Shown here in pieces: positions 43,493 to 54,027 of a stretch of 64,000 nucleotides of DNA. A program made the translations under genes and the position numbers. Each line of letters begins with the position of its first letter. The stretch's first letter is position 1. A model generated the notes under the pieces. The model was given only the letters and a program-made list of their open reading frames with translations. It was not told the DNA's origin and ran no database searches. Source of the stretch: Candidatus Poseidoniales archaeon (lineage in GTDB: Archaea > Thermoplasmatota > Poseidoniia > Poseidoniales > Poseidoniaceae); assembly GCA_012959275.1 (NCBI GenBank), contig DUDM01000034.1, positions 16,688-80,687 of the forward strand. Direction: 5' to 3'.

Positions 43493-44464
43493 ATGTTACC
43501 TTGCTTCGCCCAGCACATGGCAGCAGTCGGTGAACTCGCAGACTATTTCCGGTTGGCTTGTGAAAGAGCCGCAATCGCCAGTGACGAATGGCGGGGCAAA
43601 GGCGACGGTAAGGCCGCTGATGGAGCAGCAGTCGAGGCAATGCGCTCAACATTCGACCAAGTTCCATTTGATGGCAGGGTGGCAATCGGCGAAGGCGAGA
43701 GAGATGAAGCCCCAATGTTGTGGATTGGCGAGCCTCTTGGAAATATGCAAGGCCATCCAGATGCAGTGAAAGTAGACATCGCTGTTGACCCATTGGAGTG
43801 CACAAATAATTGCGCCACAAACAGTCCAAATTCAATCGCCGTACTTGCAGCCGCCCCTCGCGGAGACTTGCTACATGCTCCAGATTGCTACATGGACAAA
43901 ATAGCAGCAGGACCAGACTTAACTGGAGAAATTAGCCTTGATGCTGAAGTGGCATGGAACCTTGAACAGGTTGCTTCGGTTTTGGATAAAGCAGTTTCAG
44001 AGGTTCGGGTTGTAGCACTTGATAGAGAGAGACACGCCCAATTATTTTCAGAAGTTAAGGACGCAGGTGCGCAATTGCATTTGATGGGTGATGGAGATAT
44101 TTCTGCAGCGATTTGGGCCTCTGAAGCCGATGGTCCCTACGATTTGTTACTTGGAATTGGGGCTGCTCCAGAGGGAGTGATTACCGCTACTGCATTACGT
44201 GGTCTTGGTGGTGTATTTGAAGGCAGACTAAAATTTCGTTCTGAAGAAGAGCGTAATAGAGCAGAAGGAATGGTTGGTGGAGACCTTGATCGACTTTGGA
44301 CTGCAGAGGAATTATGTCGTTCATCTGATGCAGTTTTTGTCGCAACTGGTGTTTGCCCAGGCTATCTACCGGGTGTAGAACACCTTGCTGAAGGAATTAA
44401 GACGACTTCGCAAGTCATCGATGTCACTTCCGGAAAAACCAGTAGGATTGAGACGATTCATTGA
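43493..44464 (+). CDS. glpX: fructose-1,6-bisphosphatase class II (GlpX)
   Basis: 323 aa with GEGERDEAPML, IAVDPLECT and LMGDGDISAAI. Confidence 0.85.
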   Translation: MLPCFAQHMAAVGELADYFRLACERAAIASDEWRGKGDGKAADGAAVEAMRSTFDQVPFDGRVAIGEGERDEAPMLWIGEPLGNMQGHPDAVKVDIAVDPLECTNNCATNSPNSIAVLAAAPRGDLLHAPDCYMDKIAAGPDLTGEISLDAEVAWNLEQVASVLDKAVSEVRVVALDRERHAQLFSEVKDAGAQLHLMGDGDISAAIWASEADGPYDLLLGIGAAPEGVITATALRGLGGVFEGRLKFRSEEERNRAEGMVGGDLDRLWTAEELCRSSDAVFVATGVCPGYLPGVEHLAEGIKTTSQVIDVTSGKTSRIETIH

Positions 44465-45054
44465 GTACAAGTTCTAGAATTGTGCCCTGATTTCCCACAG
44501 TTTTTGCAGTGTTTGAATTGATTGTTTCTATTTGGAAAGACTTTTTTGGCATCCGCTGCCTCTGGGTTCACCTTTGGACACGTGCGGGAATTATGCCCAA
44601 TTCTATTGCAAGCCTGACATCGACGCTTACCATCTTTAGGGCGATTCCTTTTGAGGGCCGCTCGTTCTGGAAATAGCCTTGGGCATGTTCGGTTATTATG
44701 TCCGACTTTATTGCATTCGCCGCATACCCTTCTACCATCTGGACGGGGCTTTCGCTTGGCGGGACGGTCTGGATGAAGACGAGGGCAAGAACGTGTATTG
44801 TGACCTTTCCTAAAGCAGTAAGCGCAACGTCTGATTCCATCTTTTTTCTTTTTTTGTTTTCGATTTGGATAAGTTTTTGGGCAAGTTCTTGTGTTGTGAC
44901 CAACGCGGCTACAGTTTCCACATCTCCTGTTACCCCTTGTTTCTAGCCTATATTTACGCTTTTTTGCCTTAGTGGGATTCAATTTAGGGCAGGTTCTTCT
45001 GTTGTGCCCTTTTTCATTACAATTCGAACAAATATAGAAGAAGTTGTCAGCCAT
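44458..45054 (-). CDS. highly basic protein made of six tandem CCHC zinc knuckles
   Basis: ATG at 45054. Six copies of C-x2-C-x3-GHN-x-R-[ST]-C: CSNCNEKGHNRRTC, CGNCSRVGHNTRTC, CAYCFRKGHNTRSC, CGECNKVGHNNRTC, CQACNRIGHNSRTC and CKNCGKSGHNSRTC. They are joined by K/R/P-rich linkers. Confidence 0.8.
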   Translation of the reverse strand: MADNFFYICSNCNEKGHNRRTCPKLNPTKAKKRKYRLETRGNRRCGNCSRVGHNTRTCPKTYPNRKQKKKKDGIRRCAYCFRKGHNTRSCPRLHPDRPAKRKPRPDGRRVCGECNKVGHNNRTCPRLFPERAALKRNRPKDGKRRCQACNRIGHNSRTCPKVNPEAADAKKVFPNRNNQFKHCKNCGKSGHNSRTCTQ

Positions 45055-45147
45055 CTTAATCAATTGGTTGATAAAATCACTCTTATATGTATTATATGGC
45101 AAGTAAATCAGAACCCTGTATTAGGGATTGATTGAAGGAGGAATCCC

Positions 45148-46105: not shown

Positions 46106-46420
46106 TCACCTGAATATCGAGTTTCCATTTTTATCATTGTTGAGTAGAATTGGCTTGCCATCTTCCCACTCGGGGCAGTTGTCGGAAACCCAAATGCGTG
46201 TTGCCCACTCACAAATATCGTAGCCACCAGAGAGGATTCCACTTCGCTTGATATAGCCAACCTTGACGATGTCTTTGTCTTTGGAAAGTACGTTTCCTAA
46301 TTGTTGACTTGTTGTGCCGTGGCGCATTGTGGTATTGATATGCTCAAGTATTTCGGCTGTGTTCCTAGGGCGCTCTGCCAGGAACTTCTTAATTTTCTCG
46401 CGTATTCTTACTGTTTTCAT
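46106..46420 (-). CDS. small winged-helix DNA-binding protein (family not recognised)
   Basis: ATG at 46420 preceded by AAGGAGG (an alternative ATG lies at 46459). KIKKFLAERPRNTAEILEHINTTMRHGTTSQQLGNVLSKDKDIVKVGY looks like HTH plus wing. Confidence 0.6.
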   Translation of the reverse strand: MKTVRIREKIKKFLAERPRNTAEILEHINTTMRHGTTSQQLGNVLSKDKDIVKVGYIKRSGILSGGYDICEWATRIWVSDNCPEWEDGKPILLNNDKNGNSIFR

Positions 46421-46599
46421 TGAATCATCCTCCTTTTGTTTTTTGGGCGGCCGCTTCATGGTTCGGTGCCCGATATGGCAGAGGAACGCTGGGGCTCATA
46501 TAACCGTTATGCCTACAATTGATTGTAGGGTTACACTTACTGACCATTATAGGTGCAATATTGTGCCAACCGAGGCACGTGGTGTGAAAAATAGTCTAA

Positions 46600-46612
46600 C
46601 TCCAGTGGAAAC
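46600..46612 (+). promoter_or_regulatory. ORB / mini-ORB core motif CTCCAGTGGAAAC
   Basis: Exact match to the core of the archaeal origin recognition box. Lies in the divergent intergenic region 40-95 nt upstream of the 866-aa gene. Confidence 0.5.
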
Positions 46613-46651
46613 CCGTAACTAAATGTAAGTTTAAAGCATGTTAAGGTCAAG

Positions 46652-49252
46652 TTGATAACCCCCCCTGCCTGTAGAATTAATTGGAGGATACCGGAGGTGC
46701 CAGCAAAGATCCGCAGTAATTACCGGCGAAGGCTGCTTACAACCCTCAGCATTTCTGGTTGCTCTGTTAGTGAGGCTGCTCAAAAAACAGGGCTTCGTTT
46801 ACCACACGCATCTGCAGAATTAAAGAAACTAAGAGGCGAGGGCCATGTTTCTGCGGATAGAGAGGGTGAGAGTAGAGGTTCGCACCAGAGATTAACCTCA
46901 TCAGGAATGAAATTACTTGAGTCAGATGAATTGGCTCGCTTGAAACAAGTTCTGAAGACTGGAGTGCCATCAGAAGCACAAGGATGCATTGTTGCTAGAG
47001 ATGGCGAATCACTACTGTTGGCTTACGCGGTTAATCCCGGAAAAGGCATTTTGTTGATACCAAATCAAGGGATGGAGATAATTAGTGATTCCAGTGGAAA
47101 CCAAGGGGATGAATTAGAATTCAGTTGGGTTACTCCTGTCGAGCGAAGAATACGCTGGTTTGATTCCAAAACTTTAGAGCCTACCCAAGCACCTGAATCC
47201 GGGCAATCAATGCAGACATTGGCTGCTTGGACTGAAGCAAACCAAGTTGTAGGATTAATCCGAGGGCGAACTTTGGATTATTCAAAAAGTGAGAATTTGG
47301 CTGTTGGAACTTGGTTTAAAAAACCGAAAATGAAGAACCCCCCTCCATTGCCAAATCTACTTCGTGATGGGGATTGGAATTTGGGTGAAGCACACGAATC
47401 TGCAAAGCCAGTGAAACCAGAAGTTCCACTTGTTGCGGTAGTACAGGAACGTTATGCTGCTTCTTTACTGACAAATGCAGCAAGTGAAGGGGCATGGGTA
47501 TTATCTGACCGAGCCGAATCCAACCCCATTCCAATTTCAGTTCTACAATGGTGGATTAGAGAAGTACATCCAAGACTACCTGCTGCTGAATTAAGAGATA
47601 GGCTTTCACAGGTACAAAAAGCAGCAGTTACTGGATGGAGAGGTCGAAGGAGGCGTTCAAGGCTGACAACAACATGGCAGAGATTCAGGGAATCTTGGCA
47701 AGATGTAGAGTGGCAAGAAGAACCGATTTATGAGAATCCTGCATCATTTAATATTCAGAGTTTGGATTCTTTAGCAGTGAAATCATTAATGCATTGGATT
47801 ATTGAGGATGCGAAGCAACCTTTGGTATTGAATTGGCCAACCCATCGAGATTTTGATGAAAATAAATTTGGTTCTTTACTAAATAATGGTTTGAACAGGT
47901 TGCTAATCACCCCCCATGAAATTAATTCTCCTAGTTTAGTTTTGGCCGAGGGCCCTGAAGGTTGGCCCGATTCGAGATTGAGATTACCAACAAACATTGA
48001 GATTCCTATATTGCTTGCAGAACAGAAAGAAGAGTTGATTGCACCACCTGATAATTGGACACGACCTTGGAAACCATCTGACATAATTCCCCTATCGGAA
48101 TCTTTTGACTTGGTCAAAACACCGGATGATGAATTGGAAGCATTATGGGTTGCTTGCTCTCTTTTCCCCGAGGGTGAGGAAAATTGGGCGAATAGACATG
48201 AAAGCAAATTTCCATTAGCAGCATGGATTGCTAGTAGCCAAGAGCACAGGTGGTCAAGATGGCAAAGAATTTCAAGATGGCTAAATTCTGAATGGATAGA
48301 GTTGCTACCCCCTGAAGAAGTGCCATTTTCTGAGCTGGTGAAATTATTGGCCCGAGCCACACCAGAATGGAGGATTCACGCCAGTCAAGTGATACGGAAA
48401 ACAATGATTCTGCAACCTGATGCAGTTATTGAGATGAGGAGATGGTGCAAAGAAAAATCAGATGCAGCAGTTTGTGCAGAACAAATCCTAGCAGTTGCGC
48501 CGTGGATTATCCCTCATTTAGGAAAAGCCATGGCTGTTTGGGCATACCAAGCATGGCAAGCATACCCAACTCAAGATATTGGGCCAGTATTAGAAGGTAT
48601 GAAATGGTGTGCTTGTCAAGGATTTCTCAAGAAATCATGGTCAAAGCCAATTGAAGAAGTTGCCATCAATTTGCGTTCAGGTCACCCATTGAGGCACTGG
48701 CTTTCAATCCTGAAGTGGACAACAGATGGAAAGACAATGAGGCTTGACTCAATGCGAAATTCATTCGAAGCATTACCTCTTGATTGGTGGGCTCATCTCT
48801 CTATCGAAGCATTGTCGCGACAACTCGAAGATGAAGATGGAAGAAGCTGGTTATTGGAACAACCAATTTCATGGGCTGCTGCTTGCCTAAGGCCACCAAC
48901 AGAGGAAGGAAGGTTACCAGGTGCGGATAGTCAACATCCAGGGATGGATATGAATTTAGTAGTTTCAATACGACATCACTTTGTGAATCTTGAAAATGAA
49001 AAAGGAGAAGGCAGTTCACATCTCTTAGATTTGATAGAAAGTATAGAAGACTTGGAACAAGGAAGCGCAGTAAAATGCGGTAGAACCCATCCAGCAGTTT
49101 CATGGTTGGTTAGACCAGTCGATGAGTGGGGGATATTAGACTTGACACCTGAAGGCTTTTCTTGCGATGAAATGGTCCAGGCAAGATTGGATATACGCGT
49201 CAGTGGTTTCCATTCTGGGCTATTAGAGTCCACACAAGCAAGGCTGCCTTGA
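46652..49252 (+). CDS. 866-aa orphan protein with N-terminal winged-helix (ArsR/MarR-like) domain
   Basis: Uninterrupted ORF with a non-ATG start (TTG 46652, or GTG 46697 lying 9 nt after GGAGG). N-terminal RRRLLTTLSISGCSVSEAAQKTGLRLPHASAELKKLRGEGHVSADREGESRGSHQRLT. The remainder is Trp/Arg-rich with no motif I recognise and no P-loop. Confidence 0.7.
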   Translation: MITPPACRINWRIPEVPAKIRSNYRRRLLTTLSISGCSVSEAAQKTGLRLPHASAELKKLRGEGHVSADREGESRGSHQRLTSSGMKLLESDELARLKQVLKTGVPSEAQGCIVARDGESLLLAYAVNPGKGILLIPNQGMEIISDSSGNQGDELEFSWVTPVERRIRWFDSKTLEPTQAPESGQSMQTLAAWTEANQVVGLIRGRTLDYSKSENLAVGTWFKKPKMKNPPPLPNLLRDGDWNLGEAHESAKPVKPEVPLVAVVQERYAASLLTNAASEGAWVLSDRAESNPIPISVLQWWIREVHPRLPAAELRDRLSQVQKAAVTGWRGRRRRSRLTTTWQRFRESWQDVEWQEEPIYENPASFNIQSLDSLAVKSLMHWIIEDAKQPLVLNWPTHRDFDENKFGSLLNNGLNRLLITPHEINSPSLVLAEGPEGWPDSRLRLPTNIEIPILLAEQKEELIAPPDNWTRPWKPSDIIPLSESFDLVKTPDDELEALWVACSLFPEGEENWANRHESKFPLAAWIASSQEHRWSRWQRISRWLNSEWIELLPPEEVPFSELVKLLARATPEWRIHASQVIRKTMILQPDAVIEMRRWCKEKSDAAVCAEQILAVAPWIIPHLGKAMAVWAYQAWQAYPTQDIGPVLEGMKWCACQGFLKKSWSKPIEEVAINLRSGHPLRHWLSILKWTTDGKTMRLDSMRNSFEALPLDWWAHLSIEALSRQLEDEDGRSWLLEQPISWAAACLRPPTEEGRLPGADSQHPGMDMNLVVSIRHHFVNLENEKGEGSSHLLDLIESIEDLEQGSAVKCGRTHPAVSWLVRPVDEWGILDLTPEGFSCDEMVQARLDIRVSGFHSGLLESTQARLP
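47089..47108 (+). promoter_or_regulatory. full ORB-like element TTCCAGTGGAAAC-CAA-GGGG, inside the coding sequence
   Basis: Second exact copy of TCCAGTGGAAAC in the same orientation, followed by a G-string as in full ORBs. It encodes SSGNQG of the 866-aa protein. Confidence 0.4.
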
Positions 49253-49290: not shown

Positions 49291-49578
49291 TTGCCACACC
49301 AGCAACACCGACTGGAGCAACTACCCCGCCGGGTAGACGTGATGAGAGTACGGTACCAATGAGTGTGGCATTTAGCCGTCAACGAAGACCAGGGGGATCC
49401 TTCGGGAGATGATGTCTGGTGCAAACTGGCGGCGTGATTATCGACTGAGTTTGGGTCCTTGCCCGACGAGAGGATGAATGTGAGACAACCCCTCGGTCGT
49501 ACAGATGCCCTGGTGTGAGGGTCATGCCCCTGAGGAGACTGTGAGGAGGGCTGTTACACACCGGGGCTCACTCTATCT
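49291..49578 (+). ncRNA. candidate structured noncoding RNA of about 290 nt with kink-turn motif(s); identity unresolved
   Basis: A 366-nt gap with no credible CDS. My hand count gives about 57 percent G+C over 49321-49560. Hairpin CUACCC-CGCC-GGGUAG at 49321-49336. K-turn hairpin at 49388-49420. Helix 49375-49380/49428-49433. Hairpin 49464-49499 followed by ACA. 10-bp helix 49508-49517/49557-49566. Boundaries are approximate. Confidence 0.5.
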
Positions 49579-49618
49579 TACACAAGGAATATCTCCTTCC
49601 CTCCCTGCCACTTCTTTG

Positions 49619-50626
49619 ATGGCAAGACAATTCAGCCGTTGTCTGGTAGGTGGAACCTTTGACAGATTCCATGCTGGCCATATTTATCTGCTCGATTTAG
49701 CACTTTCAAAATCTCAGCATGTTGAAGTTTGGATAACCGATGACAAGATGGTTTCAGATAAGGTAGGTATTCCATTAGAACTAGACAGGCGCATGGATGA
49801 ACTTTCCGAATGGGCTGAATTGAAACATGGAGATCGAATCAGCCTTCATATTCTTAGAGATAAATTTGGACCAGCACCACATCGAAAGGATTGTGATGCG
49901 ATTGCTTGCACTATTGAGACCAAGAGAAATTGTTTATCGATAAATGAGCAACGTTATGCAGCAGGATTGGAAGCCTTGGAAATCATTGTTGCTCCCCATA
50001 TTGAAGATGGTGCAGGAGGAATAATCAGCAGTACAAGAATAAGGGCTGGAATTATTGATAGAGATGGGAATCCATGGCTGGTCGATAATGACCAAGACCG
50101 AAAGATGCCGAAAGTACTGGATGATTCACTTAAGCAACCAATGGGCATTCTATATGAAGGTCCAGAAGAATACCCTGAATTAGCAATGCGGAAAGCATTG
50201 GAAGAAATCCCAAATTCTTCGAGCATCATAGCAGTTGGAGATGTATGCGTTCAAACTATGTTAGAGATAGGAGTTCGCCCATGGATTGGATTTATCGATG
50301 GCCGAACTAAAAGACAACTTCTCGATGAATCAGAAACAGTTTCAACAGAAGGTTGGGAAGCAATCATTCATTGTACAAACCCACCTGGTATTATCTCATC
50401 AGATTTGATAAAAACTTGTCGTAAATCTGTAAATTCAGATGGCACAGTGTTGGTGGTGGTGGATGGAGAAGAGGACCTCGTTCCCATCCCAATTCATATG
50501 ATGTTACCATTAGATTGCTACCTCATATATGGTCAACCAAACAAAGGTGTGGTGGTGCGAATTAGTGATGAAACTGTGAAGCAACGTTGCAGAGAAATGT
50601 TTGCTGCTTTTGAGGTGATTCCTTGA
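49619..50626 (+). CDS. bifunctional phosphopantetheine adenylyltransferase (archaeal PPAT) / GTP-dependent dephospho-CoA kinase (DUF359) fusion
   Basis: ATG at 49619 gives MARQFSRCLVGGTFDRFHAGH (the nucleotidyltransferase HxGH motif). The C-terminal half has VGDVCVQ, DGRTKRQ, NPPGII, VDGEEDLVPIP and YGQPNKGVV, matching the DUF359 DPCK pattern. Confidence 0.85.
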   Translation: MARQFSRCLVGGTFDRFHAGHIYLLDLALSKSQHVEVWITDDKMVSDKVGIPLELDRRMDELSEWAELKHGDRISLHILRDKFGPAPHRKDCDAIACTIETKRNCLSINEQRYAAGLEALEIIVAPHIEDGAGGIISSTRIRAGIIDRDGNPWLVDNDQDRKMPKVLDDSLKQPMGILYEGPEEYPELAMRKALEEIPNSSSIIAVGDVCVQTMLEIGVRPWIGFIDGRTKRQLLDESETVSTEGWEAIIHCTNPPGIISSDLIKTCRKSVNSDGTVLVVVDGEEDLVPIPIHMMLPLDCYLIYGQPNKGVVVRISDETVKQRCREMFAAFEVIP

Positions 50627-51687: not shown

Positions 51688-52311
51688 TTAGTCCATCGGC
51701 GCAACTTCGCCATCTTCTGCAGGCATAATGAATAAGGCAATACCGAACCCAATTAATGCTGCAGCGACAGAATAGACACCAGGATCAATCCATCCAGTGT
51801 GGGCGATTCCCCAATAAAAGTAGAAAATGATTCCAATTGCTAGAAGCCATGAGGAGAATGTTTTCCTCCAACCACCCTCTTCGGCATTCATCATTGCTAG
51901 CCAATAGTCGTTGACAAAGAGGTTTTTCAGCCATGCAGCCATGCCACCTTCAAAATGGGTATTGATGCCTTTTGCTCCTAGTCCAATGAGCACTAGCCCC
52001 ATAGTTAGGAATGCACTATCACCTAAGATGTGGAATCCTTGACCACTTGTTTCAGTAAACAAAATTTCCCCAAATGCACCAAGGCTCAAGAAACCGACCC
52101 AGGAGACTTTGCCACTTGGATGTGCCATCACAAGTACGTTGAGTATTCCCAATAGTAAGATCCAAGCCCCTAACGCGAAAAACCAAACCGAAATGCTGCG
52201 ACCCGGATTGAGGATGGAATTGATGAAGCCGCCTTCAGCCTCGCCCTTCTCAGTCTCTGACATGGCCACGCCGACCATCGGTTCTCGTTTAAGTGGCTCG
52301 GCTTGCTTCAC
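51688..52311 (-). CDS. hypothetical integral membrane protein, overlapping the orc1/cdc6 stop by 4 nt
   Basis: 207 aa with about six hydrophobic spans. Family not recognised. Confidence 0.6.
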   Translation of the reverse strand: MKQAEPLKREPMVGVAMSETEKGEAEGGFINSILNPGRSISVWFFALGAWILLLGILNVLVMAHPSGKVSWVGFLSLGAFGEILFTETSGQGFHILGDSAFLTMGLVLIGLGAKGINTHFEGGMAAWLKNLFVNDYWLAMMNAEEGGWRKTFSSWLLAIGIIFYFYWGIAHTGWIDPGVYSVAAALIGFGIALFIMPAEDGEVAPMD

Positions 52312-53558
52312 AGGCGAGTTTGGAACCTGTACGAACCTGAATCAACCGCACTAAGTGCTTCATCTGATGCAATCATTAATGAGGTAGCATCGATGGAAAT
52401 TGGCATACATGAGTTGATTTGTTTACTTCTTCCATAACGCCCTCGGCTAACGGTTTTCGAATTAATTAACCCTAACATATCAAGATTGGAGAGTAGGTCA
52501 GTTATTCTTCTTTGAGTGAGGTTATTCGTGCCATAATGTTGGCAGGCCTGTCTGTAGATTTCATAGACTTCACCAGTTGCAATATTTGAGAGACCATTCT
52601 TTTCATTGAGAAGCACAGAGTAGAGGACTAGTTTTTGTTGTGGAGGGAGAGTTTTGATTATCGGAGTTATCTGATCGCATTCAATTTGGTTTTGAGCCAT
52701 CCTTACATGTTGTACTTCTACTGTTTCACAACCGGATTGCTCAGCCTTTTCAGTAGATACTCTAAGCAAATCCAATGCTCTTCGAGCATCACCGTGTTCT
52801 TGGGCTGCAAGAGCAGAGCATAGTTGCAAAACACCTTCACTGAGAGAATTAGTTTTGATACCAATCTCAGCACGGTCTTCGAGAATATCTTTCAGTTGTA
52901 CAGCATCATATGGTGAAAAAATGACATCTTCTTGACCTAAACGACTTTTAACGCGGGGGTCGAGGTATTCGGTAAACTTCAAATCATTACTTATGCCAAT
53001 TACACAGCATCTGGCTTGGCCCCTTCTCTTCAAATCATCATTGATATTACATAGGTTGTAGAGTAGGTCATCTCCAACCTTCTTCACTAAATGATCTATT
53101 TCATCAAGAACGATAACATGTACGCCACCGCGTTCATTCATCCTCTTAACTAATTCTTCAAACACCCTGTCTGTTGGCCAACCGGTGAATGGAATATCTT
53201 CTTTTTCATTATCTTCTAATAATGAGTTTCCAAGGAAAGCAAGGACGCGATATTGGGTGTCTATCGTACGACAATTGACATGTACTGGGTTAACCGACTT
53301 GCCGATTTGTTTACCCTTGCCCTCAAGTTGTGAGCAGATGAACCTTGTAACCGCAGTTTTTCCAGCACCAGTTACGCCGTAAAGAACCATGTTGGAAGGA
53401 ATTTGACCTTTCAGAGCCTCAACCAAATTGAACCGAATGGCTTTAATTTCTTTCTTTCTATGCGGGAGTTCACTTGGATGGTGAGAATGCCTCAAGACTT
53501 CTTTATTGACAAAGAGACTAGGATGGGACAGAAGATTATCGAAAATATTTTCTCCCAT
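52308..53558 (-). CDS. orc1: Orc1/Cdc6 replication initiator
   Basis: ATG at 53558 (MGENIFDNLL). Walker A LYGVTGAGKTA, Walker B VIVLDEIDHL, a sensor region and a C-terminal winged helix (RRITDLLSNLDMLGLINSKTVSRGRYGRSKQI). Confidence 0.92.
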   Translation of the reverse strand: MGENIFDNLLSHPSLFVNKEVLRHSHHPSELPHRKKEIKAIRFNLVEALKGQIPSNMVLYGVTGAGKTAVTRFICSQLEGKGKQIGKSVNPVHVNCRTIDTQYRVLAFLGNSLLEDNEKEDIPFTGWPTDRVFEELVKRMNERGGVHVIVLDEIDHLVKKVGDDLLYNLCNINDDLKRRGQARCCVIGISNDLKFTEYLDPRVKSRLGQEDVIFSPYDAVQLKDILEDRAEIGIKTNSLSEGVLQLCSALAAQEHGDARRALDLLRVSTEKAEQSGCETVEVQHVRMAQNQIECDQITPIIKTLPPQQKLVLYSVLLNEKNGLSNIATGEVYEIYRQACQHYGTNNLTQRRITDLLSNLDMLGLINSKTVSRGRYGRSKQINSCMPISIDATSLMIASDEALSAVDSGSYRFQTRL

Positions 53559-53582
53559 TTTGTAACATCTCCTTGATTTCAA

Positions 53583-54027
53583 TTGAGAATCATATTTCCT
53601 CAGCCAACTTCAGCCACCTGATGAGGCATCCTAGTCCGAGGGGGGTATATAGGAACTATGGCATCAGCCTCATCGTGAATGGGATTTACTCTGCAGATGT
53701 TTAATATATTGAATCATTGAAATCAGCGCTTGGCATCAACAAGTAACTAATTATTACCTACTAGTCGTGCGTTTTTTACACTTACTCTTAAATTGAGAGG
53801 AGAAAACCCCCTCATAGTATCCACTACAAAACATAATGAGTTTACAAGGATTAATTGATTATGCATGAATCATTTATTAAAATTCAATTATGTTCTAAGA
53901 TTATAATGAAGGAATCAGAAAGGGAACATTTTTTGGAGTATATGAAGACTTTCTACTCGCTCCAATTGGCAAGATACATAAAGGTGCCATTAAATATCAT
54001 ATTTATTGATAATTAAACCACTATTAT
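53583..54027. other. candidate replication origin (AT-rich intergenic region upstream of orc1/cdc6)
   Basis: A 445-bp noncoding, very A+T-rich stretch. G-run 53640-53645 and an opposed C-run with a degenerate ORB-like element (reverse complement GTAGTGGATAC-TATGA-GGGGG, 53807-53829) bracket about 160 bp of AT-rich DNA. An 8-bp inverted repeat GATGAGGC/GCCTCATC lies at 53620-53627 and 53667-53674. Confidence 0.55.

Follow-up and report, generated by a model that had tools for sequence, protein, structure and literature searches.

The DNA analysed here, a stretch of 64,000 nucleotides from a Candidatus Poseidoniales archaeon (assembly GCA_012959275.1, contig DUDM01000034.1, positions 16,688 to 80,687; hereafter the window), carries at 46106-49252 a divergent pair of genes together with two copies of the archaeal origin recognition box (ORB), one between the genes and one inside the larger of them. 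The smaller gene (46109-46420, minus strand, stop codon at 46106-46108) encodes a basic protein of 104 aa with an isoelectric point (pI) of 9.4. Its open reading frame (ORF) spans 46106-46459, and the actual start is the ATG at 46420, which follows with 8-nt spacing a GGAGG Shine-Dalgarno sequence at 46429-46433 (plus-strand numbering, read as the complement). A preliminary description of this DNA, made from the letters alone, had placed a minus-strand gene of about 104 aa with a good GGAGG site here, in agreement with these features. The product matches the Pfam family DUF3860 (PF12976) at 117 bits against a gathering threshold of 27. The larger gene lies on the plus strand, where mechanical translation gives an ORF of 866 aa from a TTG at 46652 to 49252. 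All close homologues start with MPAKIRSNYRRRLL, and the start is therefore assigned to the GTG at 46697, preceded by GGAGG at 46683-46687, yielding a gene of 46697-49252 and a protein of 851 aa. This GTG is conserved across the order in a comparison of 37 loci, so that the non-ATG start proposed earlier stands while the length of 866 aa does not. The two genes are indeed divergent, and the region that they share, for which 230-275 bp had been estimated, measures 276 bp (46421-46696).

The ORB core TCCAGTGGAAAC is found exactly at 46601 and 47090 and nowhere else in the 64 kb. As shuffled sequence is expected to contain 0.02 copies, and none of 100 shuffles contained two or more, a chance occurrence is excluded. 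The upstream copy, ORB-A (46600-46612, plus strand, core CTCCAGTGGAAAC), is the intergenic core recognised in the preliminary description; it matches the core of the archaeal ORB exactly and, lacking a G-string, corresponds to a mini-ORB. The second and stronger copy, ORB-B, had been missed. It is a full ORB (TTCCAGTGGAAAC CAA GGGG; 47089-47108, plus strand) lying 489 bp downstream of ORB-A in the same orientation, within the large gene, where it is read in frame as codons 131-138 (D-S-S-G-N-Q-G-D). Its G-string follows the core on the 3' side at a set distance, GGAA-N5-GGGG(T). This is the spacing of the consensus GTTCCAGTGGAAATGG-AGGGGTA of the related Methanomassiliicoccales and is close to that of the pan-archaeal consensus CTTCCAGTGGAAACGAAAGGGGT (PMC4153887).

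Conservation was assessed over 85 non-duplicate loci, and position weight matrices (PWMs) were scanned against 1.47 Mb of DNA from related loci. A strict regular expression recovers ORB-A on the plus strand in 80 of the 85 loci, at -95 to -158 from the start of the large gene, and the remaining loci with upstream DNA retain a degenerate copy. With a threshold of at least 16 bits, the full-ORB PWM detects ORB-B (consensus cTCCAntGGAAnngaaGGGGt) in 81 of the 85, at +393 to +405 within the coding sequence. It has just four further matches in the 1.47 Mb, each of them at ORB-A or ORB-B but read on the other strand. The distance between the boxes is likewise maintained, at ~490-530 bp across the order. 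Both boxes thus match, at fixed positions order-wide, the sequence bound by the archaeal initiator Orc1/Cdc6. In two loci (L009, L042) the ORB-A box, at -86, reaches the score of a full ORB on the other strand as well, its G-string then being on the other side, and the same is seen for the box at +411 in two others (L078, L080); box polarity may thus vary within the order.

The position of ORB-B inside a gene makes it possible to compare the constraint on the DNA with that on the protein. Among 38 members of the large-protein family with pairwise identity below 85%, codon use within the box is frozen: S132 is encoded by TCC in 31/32, G134 by GGA in 34/34, and G137 by GGG in 35/35. By comparison, at 50 other conserved residues with four- or six-fold degenerate codons (codons 1-310 of the large gene), the commonest codon accounts for 24-59% of members. 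Even where the amino acid varies, the base required by the motif TCCA..GGAA is retained, codon 133 (S, T, N, I) beginning with A in 97% and codon 135 (N, T, I, S, R, K) in 95%. Over the 851 codons, ORB-B is the sole strong peak of third-position conservation (z ~4.9). The peptide that it encodes falls in a loop predicted by AlphaFold with low confidence and disordered in the model (residues 127-139, predicted local distance difference test score, pLDDT, <50). In the MED-G33 clade (L064, L066, L067, L069), canonical ORB-B and the S-x-G-x-x-G loop are lost together in the +370 to +430 region, the loop being shortened and a degenerate remnant of the box sitting in a different peptide context, e.g. 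TCCACTAGAAACAACAAGGAGT; ORB-A in this clade is a perfect TTTTCCAGTGGAAAT at -158. Taken together, the frozen synonymous sites, the disordered loop, and the joint loss in MED-G33 imply that the DNA element dictates the peptide and not the reverse; ORB-B is kept by selection on DNA rather than on protein. An ORB selected within a coding sequence across a whole archaeal order was unexpected, and we found no literature on such a case.

The intergenic region holds further conserved elements. Just downstream of ORB-A lies an extension, GTAAC-TAAAT-GTAAG (46615-46629, plus strand), whose two GTAA(C) half-sites are separated by one turn of the helix; like ORB-B, it had escaped the preliminary description. 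The consensus of ORB-A with this extension is ttcTCCAntGGAAATnTGTAAcnAAatGTAAc, in which GTAA..AAA.GTAA is invariant in a 6-locus alignment, and the corresponding PWM (~32 bits maximum) matches solely at the ORB-A position in the 1.47 Mb and once in the window. The GTAAC-N5-GTAAC extension is part of no ORB consensus. Viral contigs scanned for the composite element yielded eight matches, which lacked a second GTAAC as well as homologues and were put down to chance. The extension adjoins an AT-rich TTTAAAG (46630-46636), probably the TATA box of the large gene. Some 85 bp upstream of the repeats, a GTTAC block (46530-46534, plus strand), their reverse complement, is conserved as tT.GTTAC in the wider alignment of 37 non-redundant loci. 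On the minus strand, an ATATAAC-GTT box (46497-46508, reading AACGGTTATATG), invariant in the 6-locus alignment and conserved in the 37 loci, is probably the promoter element (B recognition element/TATA) of the DUF3860 gene. The palindrome reported earlier does exist, as the perfect 8-bp repeat CCTACAAT TG ATTGTAGG at 46512-46529, but it is not conserved among the relatives in either alignment and was rejected as a functional element. Base composition shows an AT-rich trough, with a GC content of 0.29-0.36, from -200 to -80, a stretch that surrounds ORB-A and extends upstream from it. Scans of the locus for Rfam families, tRNAs, sigma-70 promoters, and terminators returned nothing relevant.

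The large protein had been regarded as an orphan, but it belongs to an order-wide family. A profile search of 1.84 billion representatives gave 191 matches, ~55 of them full length, and relatives occur in 122 genomes, all from Poseidoniales of both families bar one contig. That contig (L088, CAXRJJ010000080.1) carries a complete Poseidoniales locus inside a metagenome-assembled genome (MAG) labelled Yoonia sp., an alphaproteobacterium, and is most likely a binning contaminant. The window itself comes closest to MAGs of Poseidoniaceae. Neither a second architecture nor another taxon was found among the 1.84 billion representatives or in a scan of one genome per species (185,579 species genomes). 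AlphaFold divides the protein into an N-terminal winged helix-turn-helix (wHTH) domain (residues 1-90), a patchily predicted beta-rich region (95-444), and an all-alpha solenoid (445-851); the solenoid, modelled separately, has a confident fold with a pLDDT of 87.7 and a predicted TM-score (pTM) of 0.82. The wHTH is basic (pI 10.4) and the remainder acidic (pI 5.2-5.6). With 4.6% Trp and 7.1% Arg, the protein is Trp- and Arg-rich as had been stated; the acidic solenoid is Trp-rich.

The assignment of the first 90 residues to an ArsR/MarR-like wHTH, made in the preliminary description, is upheld by the predicted fold and finds weak support from hidden Markov models (HMMs), with no family match above threshold for the large protein. 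NF033788 matches with E 7e-6 and 25.7 bits, below its curated cut-off of 55, PF01022 matches 2 of 10 members, and PF12840 reaches E 0.1. Foldseek retrieves CzrA, SmtB, Mb0332, and AspA with a probability of 1.0, TM-scores of 0.58-0.76 over ~85 residues, and E-values of ~1e-2. The model thus supports an ArsR-like fold for the N-terminal ~90 residues, on which ArsR/SmtB and MarR regulators and AspA of pNOB8 superpose with TM-scores of 0.6-0.76. Those proteins are ~100-150 aa long, whereas the domain here heads a protein of 851 aa. Its recognition helix, LRLPHASAELK, is invariant among homologues.

Profile searches and structure prediction, both proposed in the preliminary description, recognise the wHTH and leave the remainder without a known relative. 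The libraries applied were Pfam, NCBIfam, PHROGs, PADLOC, and PDB; beyond the wHTH, nothing matched in Pfam, NCBIfam, PHROGs, or PDB. No AAA+ P-loop ATPase domain was found with Pfam, NCBIfam, or PDB, with which the neighbouring cdc6 product matches readily, and no Cdt1 or WhiP family or structure appeared in the profile and structure searches; homology to Orc1/Cdc6, to WhiP/Cdt1, or to any partition protein is likewise absent from the results. The C-terminal model retrieves generic HEAT, TPR, and karyopherin solenoids from PDB at a best E of 0.2, NprR/Rap proteins being among its weak neighbours, and the full model searched against PDB and a viral library is matched in the wHTH alone. Outside the wHTH, the protein thus appears to be novel. 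For its possible function as an initiator, which had been suggested earlier, we obtained no supporting result, its sole recognisable part being a predicted domain of the generic ArsR-like type.

DUF3860, by contrast, is highly conserved: it shows 80-95% amino acid identity across both families of Marine Group II, where the large protein shows 26-53%. Its third codon positions are free, which indicates that the constraint acts on the protein. PF12976 is matched by all 12 of 12 diverse members examined, and the window protein is 90% identical to PDB 2OD5, an entry listed as 'hypothetical protein' and the sole PDB match of the DUF3860 profile. DUF3860 proteins are named solely from Poseidoniales or Thermoplasmatota MAGs. 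Two possible relationships were rejected: hhalign finds DUF3860 and the large protein unrelated, and the winged helices of RAP74 and MCM7, reached at E 0.2-0.5 with a single sequence, disappear in the profile search. The gene is present divergently upstream of the large gene at every locus with enough upstream DNA, so that the pair is conserved and co-occurs with the boxes (in 80-81 of 85 loci), the two points on which the preliminary description had wished its proposal to be checked.

Some loci depart from the single-copy arrangement. In a large clade of Thalassarchaeaceae (L001, L025-L037, L044-L063 etc.), two tandem DUF3860 genes lie at -305 to -830 from the start of the large gene, whose products share 30-40% (proximal copy) and 60-70% (distal copy) identity with the window protein. 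Members of this clade often have a degenerate ORB-A core (TCCATAAGAAAT) but a canonical ORB-B. The combination may reflect co-evolution of paralogue and site, although as evidence it is weak, since it probably represents one evolutionary event. Some DUF3860 proteins (L038, L041; P0273, P0274, P0277) have at their C-terminus a SAP domain (PF02037), which is a motif for tethering to DNA or chromatin.

Among loci long enough to judge, gene order around the pair is invariant: MoaE-MoaC-GlpX-aldolase, DUF3860 (minus strand), the large gene (plus), PPAT-DUF359 (plus), (GT2), a small ORF (minus), and orc1/cdc6 (minus). In the window, the neighbours are the housekeeping genes glpX, a DeoC-type aldolase gene, PPAT/DUF359, GT2, and orc1/cdc6. 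The last of these (52308-53582, minus strand) encodes a protein with the Pfam domains Cdc6_C and Cdc6_lid and scores 506 bits with NF001625 against a cut-off of 501. It lies 5.2 kb from ORB-B in the window and 5-6 kb away across loci, with conserved orientation; it is always present, separated from the boxes by three or four genes (PPAT, GT2, small ORF). By PWM, no ORB occurs upstream of cdc6, and in the 85 loci no other full ORB occurs within 10 kb. Upstream of cdc6 there is also no element conserved order-wide except a TATA-like box and the start region; ACCCCCCTCGGACTAGGATGCCTCATC and GTGTAAAAAACGCACGAC (cdc6-sense strand, window 53630-53800) are conserved in close relatives, not order-wide, and TTACACTTAC, from the same upstream region, recurs at 46531. 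The only tRNA of the window is 37 kb from the locus. This synteny indicates that the locus is chromosomal and vertically inherited, and that the gene pair, specific to the order and restricted to a single locus, has descended together with the boxes and orc1/cdc6.

Three neighbouring genes deserve mention. A 207-aa, apparently membrane, protein is encoded at 51688-52311 (minus strand), its start overlapping the cdc6 stop by 4 nt, and may be co-transcribed with the initiator; at the equivalent position, relatives have an ORF of 176-216 aa without a family match. The next gene after the large gene is, at all loci, a fused cytidylyltransferase-like (PPAT)-DUF359 gene (window 49505-50626, plus strand), probably in a separate operon in view of the gap of 250-450 bp. 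Between glpX and the aldolase gene, a 214-aa protein with CCHC zinc-knuckle repeats (Pfam zf-CCHC_2, zf-CCHC_4, zf-CCHC_6) is encoded at 44458-45102 (minus strand), where relatives have an unannotated ORF of 162 aa. Zinc-knuckle arrays are unusual in archaea.

We assign a probability of roughly 0.55 to the reading that Poseidoniales have their chromosomal replication origin, or the main module of it that binds the initiator, at this locus. This reading is drawn from the identity of the motif, its order-wide conservation in a single-base register, the linkage to orc1/cdc6, and the lack of an alternative ORB nearby. Orc1/Cdc6, encoded 5-6 kb away, would bind ORB-A and ORB-B, and the 120-150 bp of AT-rich DNA around and upstream of ORB-A would be the likeliest region of unwinding. 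Because ORB-A and its extension adjoin the presumed promoter of the large gene, with ORB-B falling within the DNA that is transcribed, occupancy by the initiator could be coupled to expression of the large gene through promoter occlusion or a roadblock, with transcription crossing an initiator site. Together with the conserved weak GTG start, this arrangement looks like tight, initiator-dependent control of the large protein. The GTAAC repeats are a candidate site for DUF3860 or for the wHTH of the large protein; for a protein of the wHTH type they seem a better candidate than the ORB itself. The large protein might contact DNA through its basic wHTH and offer its acidic, Trp-rich solenoid as a scaffold for protein-protein interactions, acting as an accessory or regulatory factor associated with the origin, and DUF3860 could bind DNA near the origin, and possibly DNA in general, much as UBP does in Sulfolobus.

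The boxes have counterparts in characterised and predicted archaeal origins. Those of Sulfolobus oriC1 and Pyrococcus and those predicted in Methanomassiliicoccales are built from the same elements (TCCA-NN-GGAA, 5 nt, GGGGT), the spacing here being that of Methanomassiliicoccales (PMC4153887). The combination of a full ORB with a mini-ORB, the linkage to the slowly evolving orc1/cdc6 gene, and the AT-rich stretch beside a box are also shared with archaeal oriC. The locus departs from archaeal oriC in that its boxes are direct and 5-6 kb from cdc6, that one is inside a gene, and that ORB-A bears an invariant non-ORB extension. Its proposed wiring also recalls bacterial oriC, with DnaA boxes in the dnaA promoter and transcription of mioC and gidA through or beside the origin: in both, initiator sites overlap promoters or transcribed DNA, coupling occupancy, transcription, and firing. 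Bacterial oriC belongs, though, to another domain of life with another initiator, and the site described here is within a coding sequence and under dual constraint.

Several observations weigh against an origin at this place. Both boxes are on the plus strand as direct repeats, with no inverted full ORB within 10 kb, whereas in characterised origins inverted ORBs flank the unwinding element, and Sulfolobus oriC1 needs both ORB2 and ORB3 around its duplex unwinding element (DUE) (PMC12141716). The 490 bp between the boxes are ordinary coding DNA with a GC content of ~0.52 and no DUE; the AT-rich stretch lies beside ORB-A, so that the arrangement of inverted ORBs around AT-rich DNA is not found. 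The boxes do not adjoin cdc6, being 5-6 kb from it, and a region of ~350 bp upstream of cdc6 is equally AT-rich. GC skew at four-fold degenerate sites (GC4 skew) does not switch at 46.6 kb and has a weak best breakpoint at 53-54 kb: genes on the plus strand are less C-skewed than those on the minus strand up to ~53 kb, and the effect is gone beyond. Pooled over ~27 loci, GC4 skew is +0.013 left of the boxes, +0.058 between boxes and cdc6, and -0.037 right of cdc6, a pattern that is uninterpretable. As skew is confounded by gene identity, whether raw, as a four-fold breakpoint, or pooled, we rejected it as evidence either way. Finally, the predicted wHTH of the large protein is of the commonest transcription-factor type.

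What the two proteins would contribute to an origin is a separate matter. Canonical ORBs and a canonical Orc1/Cdc6 at the locus mean that a separate initiator is not required. Sulfolobus oriC3 is defined by WhiP, a non-Orc winged-helix protein, and a non-Orc winged-helix protein is here too encoded beside a (candidate) origin (PMC3607249). Unlike the Cdt1-like WhiP, the large protein combines a single ArsR-like wHTH with ~760 aa of novel domains and has no relation to WhiP in sequence or fold. For DUF3860, the nearest analogy is UBP of Sulfolobales, a basic protein of 111 aa which recognises the ucm motif next to ORBs and makes contact with MCM (PMC12141716). DUF3860 is also small, basic, and lineage-restricted, and occurs with a short non-ORB motif, GTAAC-N5-GTAAC, next to an ORB, the pairing of the two being putative; UBP differs in binding through beta-hairpins, in its unrelated sequence, and in not being encoded at the origin (PMC12141716). 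By these analogies the 851-aa protein, DUF3860, or both could be Poseidoniales-specific origin factors (co-initiator, MCM-handling, or origin-tethering) that recognise GTAAC-N5-GTAAC, with Orc1/Cdc6 occupancy of an ORB within the gene setting the level of the factor by feedback. We regard this extension of the origin reading as tentative.

A role of the large protein in replication or segregation is likewise doubtful, and of comparable weight to that of a regulator whose link to the boxes is positional. The large protein may possibly be a one-component transcription factor of the ordinary sort, in which a wHTH of the ArsR type is joined to a large sensor or scaffold domain, and have no part in replication; this would be compatible with an origin in the DNA. 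The wHTH is the only part that can be recognised, solenoid and TPR-like sensors are common in large regulators, and the weak structural neighbours of the C-terminal domain are TPR, HEAT, and NprR/Rap. Such a regulator would not be expected to remain fused to the boxes throughout the order while other neighbours vary, nor to be found nowhere else in the representatives and species genomes searched, and the conserved weak GTG start suggests tight dosage control at the site.

A less probable alternative, and an unlikely one in our view, concerns the DNA itself: the boxes would be real Orc1/Cdc6 sites that regulate the DUF3860/large-gene pair, and the origin would lie elsewhere, e.g. in the AT-rich region of ~350 bp upstream of cdc6. 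The direct orientation of the boxes with no DUE between them, the proximity of ORB-A to the presumed promoter, and the weak GC4-skew breakpoint at 53-54 kb all fit this proposal. The skew signal is within noise, and the region upstream of cdc6 contains no ORB-like site and no order-wide element beyond the TATA-like box and start region. Moreover, synonymous constraint maintained as long as the order has existed would be a high price to pay if the site served to regulate genes and nothing more.

The boxes could instead be operators through which the winged-helix proteins of the locus regulate their own genes, with a convergent likeness to ORBs. Divergent pairs of wHTH genes commonly autoregulate through shared intergenic operators, and the recognition helix LRLPHASAELK is as invariant as the boxes. 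Yet the match takes in the dyad and the GGAA extension as well as the G-string, at precisely the Methanomassiliicoccales spacing, and dimers of the ArsR type bind inverted repeats, not a polar site of 20 bp. An operator 390 bp downstream inside the ORF would be unusual, and these proteins already have a candidate site of their own in the invariant GTAAC-N5-GTAAC, so that we consider this explanation improbable. The least tenable proposal, a mobile element, a plasmid-derived partition module, or a defence island, is effectively refuted by the conserved chromosomal context: Foldseek ranks AspA, a centromere-binding protein of pNOB8, first among the neighbours of the wHTH, and PADLOC gives a weak match to the wHTH of Csa3 as its only result, but both likenesses are confined to the generic wHTH, no partition homology was found in support of the partition or defence component once suggested, phage records and PHROGs contain nothing similar, and the identical housekeeping synteny, without integrase, tRNA border, or composition shift, bears out the earlier view that the locus is no recent insertion.

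These observations have a wider meaning. The authors of the UBP study ask whether other lineages have analogues, and the locus supplies two candidate lineage-specific origin proteins of the kind sought by that work (PMC12141716). ORB-B offers a clean natural example of dual coding, in which the DNA function of a predicted initiator site dictates a peptide, and feedback through an ORB in the factor's own gene, if true, would be a wiring without a described example among archaeal origins. Poseidoniales (Marine Group II), an order still uncultured, rank with the most abundant archaea in the surface waters of the ocean, and our literature search found no paper on a replication origin of this order or on DUF3860. 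The locus provides a concrete, order-wide candidate for their origin, and a known origin would enable their growth rates to be estimated in situ.

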